A stretch of DNA of 64,000 nt from the sequence record PZ452594.1. One strand, given 5' to 3'. The notes below the pieces were generated by a model, which was not told where the DNA came from, made no database searches, and saw only the letters and a list, made by a program, of their open reading frames with translations. Position 1 is the first letter of the stretch, and every line of letters starts with the position of its first letter. This DNA is from a phage. The position numbers and the translations under genes are program-made. Shown piece by piece: positions 2,654-33,450 of this stretch.

Positions 2654-4278
<1,625 letters not shown>

Positions 4279-32184: not shown

Positions 32185-32272
32185 TTTATTCTCCTTTGTT
32201 TGTATAAGATAATACTATCACAAAGGAGCTATACTGTAAACAACTTTTTATGCAATCTTTGGAAAATAAAAA

Positions 32273-32292
32273 AGGACTCCCGAAGGAGTCCT
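32273..32292 (-). terminator. Rho-independent terminator after the small basic ORF
   Basis: aggactcc cgaa ggagtcct; on the minus strand followed by UUUUUAUUUUCC. Confidence 0.65.
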
Positions 32293-32296
32293 CAAC

Positions 32297-32473
32297 TTAT
32301 GCTTTCTGCTTACCAAAACGAGAAGCATCATCTCGAAGAACCGCACGTGCTCGGCGCATAATCTTCTCAACAGTTTGATTGATACGAGAGTTCGACCCAC
32401 GCTTGTAGCCAGCGCGTTTAGAATCACCAACTTTCTTTTCAACTGCTTTCTTTGCTTTAACTTGTTTTGCCAT
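32297..32473 (-). CDS. Small highly basic protein (58 aa from ATG 32473; track 72 aa)
   Basis: MAKQVKAKKAVEKKVGDSKRAGYKRG...; Lys/Arg-rich; followed by a rho-independent terminator. Confidence 0.5.
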   Translation of the reverse strand: MAKQVKAKKAVEKKVGDSKRAGYKRGSNSRINQTVEKIMRRARAVLRDDASRFGKQKA

Positions 32474-32718
32474 TATAAATTCTCTTTTAAATGAAAATGC
32501 AGGACTTATTGGCATTGCCTGCGCAAGCCCTCAAGGGGAACATAGGTTTTTGGATATTTAACGACCAGGATAACCATAAACCCGTCATCATTCACATTCA
32601 AGAGGTACACCGTAAAACTGCCGGGGTCTTAAAACTATAATGATTCGCAAATCATTAATCAGACAGTTCGACGGCTCCTCGATTTTAGCTCACACTAAGG
32701 CAGTGAATCTCCAATAAA

Positions 32719-32967
32719 TTACTTCAGTGTTACCACAAAGTGACGAACTGCTTTTCGTGCAGCAGAAGCCAGAGGCTTAGCATATTTAAGTTCATCTTTT
32801 TCCTGAAGCTCAGCAGCTAATGCAGTTTGAGCAGGATTCAGATGTTTGAAATAACGCAGGATTTCAAGAGCTTCGGCTTCAACATCAATAGATGCGCCAT
32901 AGTTTTCGTGACCATTATTCCATGCGTTTCGTTGCAGTTCAAGAGCGTGTTGTAATTGTTTAATCAT
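32719..32967 (-). CDS. rIII: rIII lysis-inhibition accessory protein (82 aa)
   Basis: 82 aa, N-terminus MIKQLQHALELQRNAWNNGHENYG as T4 RIII. Confidence 0.9.
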   Translation of the reverse strand: MIKQLQHALELQRNAWNNGHENYGASIDVEAEALEILRYFKHLNPAQTALAAELQEKDELKYAKPLASAARKAVRHFVVTLK

Positions 32968-33114: not shown

Positions 33115-33450
33115 TCACTTATAAAGACACGGAATAGCTTTATAGTGACAAGTAACGAATTTTTGTTTAATTTCTTTTGGCTGCTTAAGACCCAGAGCTA
33201 CAAAAGGATGCGGAACATTTCGAATTTGACCAACTGGAAGAGAAGTCAAATCACCAACTTCGCAGAAACCCTCAGGAACATCAGGACCAACAGAGTGAAC
33301 TACACACAATTCAGGAACTTCACCTTGAACACGTTTACCGATAATAAGTCCTGATTCTGTAACTTCTTCATCACCGGCTTGTGCAGGTTCAGAAACTAAA
33401 ATAACATATTCACCGACAGCACGAATTGGTAGCTGTTGTACTTCAGACAT
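33115..33450 (-). CDS. 31: gp31 co-chaperonin (GroES functional homolog, 111 aa)
   Basis: 111 aa, N-terminus [30 protein letters not shown]; MotA-box promoter upstream. Confidence 0.95.

Follow-up and report, generated by a model that had tools for sequence, protein, structure and literature searches.

A mosaic of folded RNA modules between rIII and 30.9 of a T4-type phage, with a possible role in anti-defence

Introduction

What does a T4-type phage keep in the non-coding interval between its genes rIII and 30.9? The window analysed here, 64,000 nucleotides of phage DNA (sequence record PZ452594.1), is a segment of a T4-type (Tequatrovirus) genome with 99.3% identity to T4 across this region. 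Although no virulent phage has been studied better than T4, its reference annotation has nothing to offer here: the RefSeq record leaves 244 bp between rIII and 30.9 without any feature. A first-pass annotation of the window had drawn attention to the gap and to a hairpin in it, and had proposed a structured small RNA, a regulatory region or the remnant of a lost mobile element. We found that the interval is a mosaic of conserved modules, the combinations and orders of which vary among phages, and these are very probably real structured-RNA modules. With a probability of about 0.45, we suggest that independent, folded non-coding RNA cassettes are co-transcribed as an array on the minus strand, and that their most likely function is that of a small RNA anti-defence island.

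Results

The module map was drawn from more than 1000 phage records and 25 diverse Tevenvirinae loci. In the window, the modules follow each other on the minus strand in this order:

32713-32680, minus strand: M1, a single ToxI-like (type III antitoxin-like) unit, UGGAGAUUCACUGCCUUAGUGUGAGCUAAAAUCG, recognized from positional homologues and core pairs
32685-32593, minus strand: M2, a 93-nt irregular stem-loop RNA, recognized from covariation, RNAalifold, minimum free energy and a covariance model
32592-32541, minus strand: M4, an H-type pseudoknot of about 50 nt, recognized from loop-tail complementarity and covariation
about 32540-32489, minus strand: M5, with a small hairpin

M1, M2, M4 and M5 exist as separable modules and move between unrelated virulent enterobacterial phages. 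M2 holds the hairpin that was flagged first, and its parts are as follows:

32680-32677 with 32605-32602, minus strand: helix P1
32674-32671 with 32613-32610, minus strand: helix P2
32668-32662 with 32622-32616, minus strand: helix P3
32657-32650 with 32645-32638, minus strand: helix P4, the 8-bp inverted repeat, closed by a UGCG loop
32637-32623, minus strand: a conserved 15-nt single strand, UAGUUUUAAGACCCC

The inverted repeat (taatgatt cgca aatcatta) was found exactly at 32638-32657, where the first-pass annotation had placed it. By itself this hairpin is not significant, because chance alone would give about one perfect 8-bp stem with a 4-nt loop in 64 kb of random sequence (64000 x 4^-8); its significance comes from covariation. 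Alignment A2 comprised 18 distinct M2 sequences, which were taken from T4-like phages, two Vequintavirinae and three Kuravirus-type sequences. The nested helices P1-P4 were paired in 98.1% of the cells, and 11 of the 25 pairs had changed on both sides. None of 500 shuffles equalled this, and slid partners were paired in 26-67% of cells with 0-2 double-changed pairs. For P4 (A2 pairs 31-38/43-50), all cells were paired and 3 of 8 pairs had changed on both sides in relatives. Unguided RNAalifold produced a fold identical to the proposed P1-P4, and so did folding of the single sequence (minimum free energy -25.9 kcal/mol, z -2.74). Frequent U-G pairs make the fold compatible with minus-strand RNA only. 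The proposal of a structured small RNA agrees with these results, as the hairpin is part of a covariation-supported 93-nt fold, and the interval contains a pseudoknot and a ToxI-like unit as well.

A search of the window with a covariance model of M2 recovered a single copy, with 118 bits against 14.9 bits for the runner-up. The model also detected a diverged copy in Pectobacterium phage PhiTE, in which the basal stem and internal loops are retained, P2 is doubly compensated (CCAC/GUGG) and the apical domain is replaced. Because this copy keeps the basal part, the conserved core of M2 is the basal stem with its asymmetric internal loops. Inspection by eye gave no support to readings of M2 as a hammerhead, a kink-turn or C/D-box, or a loop-E. 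About 12 nt at the start of M2 (32677-32666, GGAGCCGUCGAA), which come after an A-rich run and UCG, are similar to the beginning (GGAGAGUCGCUA) of ToxI units of two types, E. coli IncF and E. asburiae (L263, L266). The resemblance of M2 to ToxI is confined to this 5' end, and the same start is present in M2 copies without an upstream M1.

M4 is a different kind of fold, made up of the following elements:

32586-32581 (GACGGG) with 32569-32563 (CCUGGUC), minus strand: stem S1
32575-32572 (loop, GGUU) with 32548-32545 (AACC), minus strand: stem S2
between S1 and S2, minus strand: the A-rich linker GUUAAAUAUCCAAAA, identified by inspection

In duplex energy, the hairpin loop of M4 preferred its own 3' tail to permuted tails, with 0 of 5000 permutations as good. 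On a MAFFT alignment (A3), a conservative count found pairing in 85% of cells and double changes in 7 of 10 pairs, compared to 34-48% of cells paired in slid controls. The outer pairs of S1 were intact in 100% of cells and included A-U/U-A and C-G/G-C swaps. Covariation between loop and tail is illustrated by UGUGAG/CUCACA, GAUGG/CCAUC, UUAGUAG/CUACUAA and GUUGGUU/AACCAAC. An alternative helix of AUGAUGAC with GGUUAUC was rejected, since on inspection it was not retained in locus L246. M4 is separable because the locus of phage LTH01 equals that of phage W70 plus M4.

In its size (range about 40-57 nt), its H-type pseudoknot and its A-rich strand, M4 has the architecture of type III antitoxins. 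The tenpI antitoxins are pseudoknots of 39-57 nt with a conserved A stretch (PMC3401426, PMC12283969). Compared by description only, M4 is like TenpI/CptI in being an H-type pseudoknot of about 50 nt with a conserved A-rich strand and a covarying stem 2 (PMC3401426, PMC12283969). It differs from them in that it is unrepeated, with a single copy, and has no adjacent toxin gene. In Y. pseudotuberculosis p_153kb, we found no annotated TenpN and no convincing repeats.

ToxI, to which M1 is compared, is the RNA antitoxin of the ToxIN type III toxin-antitoxin systems and sequesters the ToxN endoribonuclease. The M1 of Klebsiella phages has 93.5% identity over 31 nt to units in 65 small enterobacterial plasmids, where they occur in 3-10 tandem places each. 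In E. coli pNMEC-O75B, 5.6 copies of AGGTGATTTGCTACCTTTAAGTGCAGCTAGAAATTC are directly followed by a terminator and a ToxN/AbiQ toxin gene. Variant units are present at other enterobacterial ToxN loci, and the M1 variants of the phages correspond to these different natural ToxI types. A hidden Markov model (HMM) built from bacterial units only detected the positional homologues of M1 in many Tevenvirinae intervals (E 8.5e-9 to 1.7e-4), as well as the annotated pseudo-ToxI of PhiTE. The M1 of the window is positioned like the other copies, is 87.5% identical to Mosigvirus M1 and agrees at 32 of 39 bases with the unit that opens the E. coli IncF and Serratia arrays; the first ToxI unit of pRHB30-C10_4 is the closest to the M1 of T4. 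After the M1 of the window comes GAGGAG, like the start of a second unit (about 8 nt).

The ToxI core pairs 2-15, 3-14, 9-25, 10-24 and 11-23 were paired in 97.3% of cells and 3 of the 5 were double-changed, while slid controls had none. Of these pairs, 9-25 is from the literature (PMC3475682) and the remaining four were inferred in this analysis. In the window, A10-U24 replaces G-C and the core pair is retained. M1 shares its length class and core pairs with ToxI and the PhiTE pseudo-ToxI, and like the latter it belongs to a virulent phage, where it is sense-oriented within non-coding DNA (PMC3475682). It differs from both as a single unit with neither a tandem array nor an adjacent toxin gene, and the copy in the window is diverged and borderline by sequence alone. 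There is no ToxN-family gene beside M1, the neighbours being rIII and 30.9, as would be expected for a mimic. Rfam also misses genuine ToxI arrays; its silence is therefore uninformative on M1, and this blindness may explain why such units have been missed by automated annotation. M1 is very probably a homologue of ToxI.

M2 occurs within 2 kb of a ToxI-like unit in three lineages, namely the T4-like phages, PhiTE and the Kuravirus XT32. In the T4-like phages, M2 abuts M1. In PhiTE, the M2-like element is 1.3 kb from the pseudo-ToxI in the same tRNA island; the latter was characterized by experiment (Blower et al. 2012, PMC3475682). The gene between the two is 74% identical to its counterpart in LTH01, which confirms synteny. 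In XT32, M2 and a complete type-A ToxI unit are 1.7 kb apart, and phiEco32 is without both. This ToxI unit is in an insert of about 165 nt between the terminase and portal genes, just before a terminator, and carries an upstream GAAAUUC junction (L010 4195-4365). The remaining part of the insert, about 110 nt upstream of the unit (AAUCCUAAGAGUUUCUAGAGAGACUUAGG..., L010 4195-4305), looks structured and may be another RNA cassette.

Single ToxI-like units were found in 231 phage records, from virulent enterobacterial phages, and are almost never annotated. The carriers include Klebsiella T4-like and about 110-kb phages, Salmonella 7-11/SE131, Pectobacterium DU_PP_I/IV and CB7, Erwinia IT22, Salinivibrio CW02, Yersinia TG1 and the Mosigviruses. 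In PhiTE, the pseudo-ToxI (L270 about 2505-2610) is apparently set in a tRNA-like scaffold, with a D-arm-like TATAGCTCAGC before it and GGTTCGAACCC...CCACCA after it. In the P. atrosepticum plasmid pPA21A (L279 1-372), a natural array with more than 10 units precedes a ToxN homologue. Its unit is exactly that of the PhiTE pseudo-ToxI (AGGTGATTCGCTACCTT(T)AAGTGCGGGACGAAAATCC), and therefore the PhiTE sequence mimics a second, real ToxI type.

Conservation of the modules exceeds that of the genes around them. Between the window and Mosig-/Dhakavirus, M2 and M4 are 96-100% identical, compared to 77-94% for gp31, rIII and 30.9. LTH01 belongs to another subfamily, and its M4 is 98% identical. The first-pass annotation had named a lack of conservation across related phages, along with the absence of a transcript, as the result that would count against it; for conservation, the opposite was observed. 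In Kuravirus, M2 is present in 28 of 76 records as a clean insertion of about 90 nt directly upstream of the terminator that precedes the terminase gene; XT32 has the insertion and phiEco32 does not. In the Vequintavirinae, W70 carries M2 only and LTH01 carries M2 plus an inserted M4. In PhiTE, W70 and LTH01, M2 is 12-28 nt upstream of the first tRNA of a tRNA island, and most relatives of PhiTE are without M2. On inspection of the junctions of XT32 against phiEco32, we found neither terminal inverted repeats (beyond the 4-bp P1) nor a target-site duplication. The idea of a lost mobile element is partly right. The modules are transferable cassettes, present or absent among close relatives and shared with unrelated phages, but they have not decayed, being intact and strongly conserved.

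Discussion

The array would be transcribed from the rIII promoters within the rIII-30.9 mRNA. A site scan of 32474-32718 gave no sigma-70 promoter (-35/-10 hexamers) and no intrinsic terminator, the nearest terminator being at 32293-32272; a regulatory region, as first proposed, is conceivable even so. Because the interval is without its own promoter or terminator, co-transcription with rIII and 30.9 is probable. The RNAs would then fold and might be excised by host RNases or by the toxin itself. When the phage shuts off host transcription, the labile host antitoxin would be depleted, and the phage RNAs could capture the freed effector. For M1, the target would be a ToxN variant. M4 would suit such a role by its size and architecture, which are those of type III antitoxins, and the conserved basal internal loops of M2 may resemble a protein-binding platform. 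Both could be analogous decoys for other RNA-binding effectors.

The strength of this proposal is not the same for each module. A role as decoy RNA against abortive-infection effectors is moderately supported for M1, where homology is the basis. For M2 and M4 we infer it by association, from their architecture, accessory-gene-like distribution and company. For M2 in particular, an anti-defence decoy is possible, at somewhat less than even odds. More tentatively still, M2 and M4 might be founding members of new phage decoy-RNA classes directed at RNA-binding immune effectors of the host, rIII-30.9 a cassette-collecting island that exchanges cassettes with Vequintavirinae, Kuravirus and other coliphages, and single ToxI-like units a common and overlooked counter-defence.

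Several observations weigh against an anti-defence island. The M1 of the window is the most diverged copy of all; it is the top match of the bacterial-unit model in the window, yet with 12.1 bits (E 0.014), when the best of 60 shuffled windows reached 12.6. Tandem repetition (1.9-5.6 units) is absent, as M1 is one unit plus about 8 nt, and for PhiTE, escape from ToxIN required 4.5-5.5 pseudo-ToxI units (PMC3475682). Without amplification of tifA, T4 is sensitive to the ToxIN of E. coli (PMC10853763). (TifA is T4 gene 61.4, so its identity with 30.9 was ruled out.) M2, at 85-93 nt, is far above the length of known type III antitoxins. Pattern scans of genomes and metagenomes for a bacterial counterpart of M2 gave phage copies only; with the pattern TCTGATTA-N13-18-TTATAGTTTTA in genome, metagenome and viral collections, nearly all matches were due to chance and the true ones were T4-like or Kuravirus-like only. 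A blastn search of the interval gave no plasmid or E. coli genome match; both kinds of search have little sensitivity for short or diverged matches. Finally, most M2-bearing Kuraviruses are without the ToxI insert, and the bacterial-unit HMM found no ToxI-like unit within about 3 kb of M2 in LTH01 and W70.

The main alternative is that the modules are cis-acting elements of a polycistronic RNA, such as processing signals, barriers to 3'-5' exonucleases or protection from Rho-termination, which stabilize the upstream mRNA or secure the expression of what follows (30.9, tRNAs). The position of M2 is suggestive in this respect, because it is always sense-oriented and in untranslated stretches, shortly before the first cluster tRNA in PhiTE, W70 and LTH01, and in Kuravirus at the end of a transcription unit, with an intrinsic terminator directly after it. 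In the T4-type phages, the lack of an internal promoter or terminator would point the same way, and an untranslated gap of 245 nt would perhaps otherwise be open to Rho and RNases. However, many close relatives do without M2 (UGKSEcP2, phiEco32 and most PhiTE relatives), which is unexpected if the expression of the neighbours needs it. The downstream partner changes in every lineage, and the near-identity across genera and phage families indicates recent lateral spread of an accessory function. On balance we consider a cis-acting role unlikely, while it is the alternative to be taken most seriously.

It is also conceivable, at lower odds, that M2 and M4 are stable small RNAs that act in trans in tRNA or translation biology and are not antitoxin mimics; they might, for instance, lure anticodon nucleases as tRNA-like decoys or modulate the translation apparatus. 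The setting of M2 in the Vequintavirinae speaks for such a role. There M2, with or without M4, is in a tRNA island beside an unannotated tRNA, tRNA-Met and an rnaD-like sequence, and this island would be processed by tRNA maturation enzymes, as is established for T4 tRNA precursors. The models would be the species 1 and 2 RNAs of T4 (rnaC and rnaD), which are likewise conserved structured phage RNAs, and a sequence similar to rnaD occurs in the same island as M2 in LTH01, W70 and PhiTE. However, neither M2 nor M4 has a tRNA-like feature by Rfam or by fold, and the modules of T4-like phages are outside the tRNA cluster. With rnaC and rnaD they share neither sequence nor fold, these RNAs have another genomic location in T4-like phages, and the likeness adds little mechanism. 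The ornate RNAs GOLLD and ROOL (PMC12286853) are also phage-borne, structured and often beside tRNAs, but they are several hundred nt long and are Rfam families, without a match in the interval or related loci.

The remaining explanations are less likely than a cis-acting role. The modules might be selfish or neutral DNA cassettes spread by recombination during co-infection, with hairpins that act at the DNA level or are irrelevant. The precedent would be the promoter-early stem-loop (PeSL) elements, which Arbiol and colleagues reportedly described in 2010 as mobile regulatory cassettes of T4-type genomes. PeSLs are also short non-coding cassettes that shuffle between such genomes, and the mosaic order and presence-absence pattern among Tevenvirinae and the clean insertions in other phage families would be understandable. 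In contrast to PeSLs, the modules are without a promoter-like site, have multi-helix covarying folds and are found outside T4-type phages too. Compensatory changes, G-U pairs included, preserve the RNA fold of one strand only, the orientation always follows transcription, and conservation is above that of the coding neighbours. With the XT32 junctions bare of terminal repeats and target duplication, cassettes of this kind are improbable. A riboswitch-like aptamer with variable expression platforms is very improbable: the conserved core of M2 does have highly conserved unpaired nucleotides, and by eye the 5' arm of the XT32 terminator could alternatively pair with the 3' strand of P1, but the downstream elements are unrelated to each other (M4 and 30.9; tRNAs; terminator and terminase) and form no consistent gene class, the conserved apical loop has been exchanged in PhiTE and lost in Gelderlandvirus, both of which retain the basal stem, and no Rfam riboswitch family matched. 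As to a coding role, we confirmed that no open reading frame of 60 aa or more exists within 32516-32718 on either strand; the longest have 49, 34 and 25 aa, without a Pfam match.

If the interval is an RNA anti-defence island, RNA antitoxin mimicry, for which PhiTE is the only experimentally documented case, would be widespread among enterobacterial phages. The PhiTE paper presents the pseudo-ToxI as a single case (PMC3475682), and in the literature that we covered, which is incomplete, neither an RNA from this interval nor the presence of ToxI-like units in phages of the T4 type or of Kuravirus is described. T4-type phages would hold at least two further conserved structured RNAs, M2 and M4, with testable folds, clear boundaries and natural presence-absence variants, and genetic tests are therefore straightforward. 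The modules could also serve as RNA baits for bound host effectors, possibly of new abortive-infection systems. As new, strongly covarying RNA families, M2 and M4 are worth curation even if they act in cis.

Neighbouring genes and minor observations

The genes and smaller elements around the modules are the following:

33115-33450, minus strand: gp31; the gene order on this strand is gp31, rIII, 30.9
32719-32967, minus strand: rIII coding sequence, the upstream neighbour from which transcripts enter the interval (phrog_1457, 'lysis inhibition accessory protein', E 4.7e-44)
32528-32538, minus strand: the small M5 hairpin CCCCUUGAGGG, within the widely conserved motif GU(U/A)CCCCUUGAGGGCUUG, identified by eye
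32489-32522, minus strand: a hairpin GCAGG(14 nt)CCUGC with AUUUUCAUUU after it, shortly before the ribosome-binding site of 30.9, read from the sequence
32297-32473, minus strand: gene 30.9, a 58-aa basic protein and the downstream neighbour (T4 RefSeq annotation; phrog_1427)
32293-32272, minus strand: a strong intrinsic terminator 3' of 30.9, from a terminator scan

Both neighbours named by the first-pass annotation are right, rIII through phrog_1457 and the small basic reading frame through phrog_1427. The long non-coding gap is real as well, but its limits, 32516-32718 (about 200 bp), needed correction. The T4 RefSeq gene 30.9 has 177 nt, which matches the MAKQ start with the ATG at 32473 in the window, and for this reason the interval is 32474-32718, or 245 bp. 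The lower bound of 32516 was an artefact of an upstream in-frame ATG at 32515 that extends 30.9 to 72 aa; this extension (32474-32515) overlaps the conserved M5 hairpins and is absent from the T4 RefSeq gene. The impression that the gap is less AT-rich than its surroundings was correct, with a GC content of 0.435 (32500-32699) compared to about 0.30-0.40 in most neighbouring 200-bp windows.

The Rfam 15 covariance models gave no match in the interval at E up to 10, nor in related loci; matches of Atu_C8 and Phe_leader at 32258-32341 are merely the terminator of 30.9. Folding of the whole interval gave weak z-scores of -1.6 (minus strand) and -1.2 (plus strand). A predicted closing stem between M1 and M5 was dropped, as phages without M1 keep M2, and an 'ori type 2 repeat' annotated in ATK48 is a 10-bp feature to which we gave no weight. 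Several GenBank records annotate proteins across the interval ('1,4-alpha-glucan branching enzyme, GH-13-type', 'putative 11.1 kDa protein' and hypotheticals), which are very likely spurious; other phage records otherwise leave the homologous interval blank.

By eye, the M5 hairpin is present in nearly all rIII-30.9 intervals of Tevenvirinae, with stem variants such as CCCUUCGAGG, CCCUAUGGGG and CCUCUUAGAGGG. The terminator scan made no terminator call for the hairpin at 32489-32522. The order and content of the interval differ among relatives: Klebsiella phages have M4-M1-M3-M5, UGKSEcP2 has neither M1 nor M2, and the M2 of Gelderlandvirus has its apical part deleted.

In LTH01 and W70, tRNA-Met is flanked by a tRNA-like gene that lacks annotation (Rfam tRNA, 35.8 bits) and by a sequence like T4 rnaD (species 2 RNA), at L002 3164-3242 and about 3345-3440, and at L257 2603-2685 and about 2785-2880. 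The record MG065656.1 (L011, 'Campylobacter phage C3', UNVERIFIED), classed as Justusliebigvirus, carries a T4-type block of M1, M2, insert, M4 and M5; its flanks are T4-like, and the junction into rIII-like sequence is odd. This may be a chimeric record or a real transfer.

In some phages, a module of about 153 nt (M3) or one of about 50 nt is placed between M2 and M4. M3 is absent from the window; it has 135-153 nt and is conserved across Tevenvirinae (L003 1205-1360; L006 495-640; intervals of L236-L255). It has covarying hairpins such as CUGA-GAAA-UCAG, CCGA-UAAA-UCGG and CAGA-GAAA-UCUG, without an Rfam match, and ToxI core motifs stand in permuted order at its 5' end (AAGUGCA-UGCUACC). 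The alternative insert of about 50 nt, UACUAUCACGCGUCAGAAAAAGGUUAUCUGUCUAAGUCGUGGUUGGUA, occurs in Mosigviruses and some Tequatroviruses (L001 1707-1760; L005 475-530) and probably forms another hairpin module.

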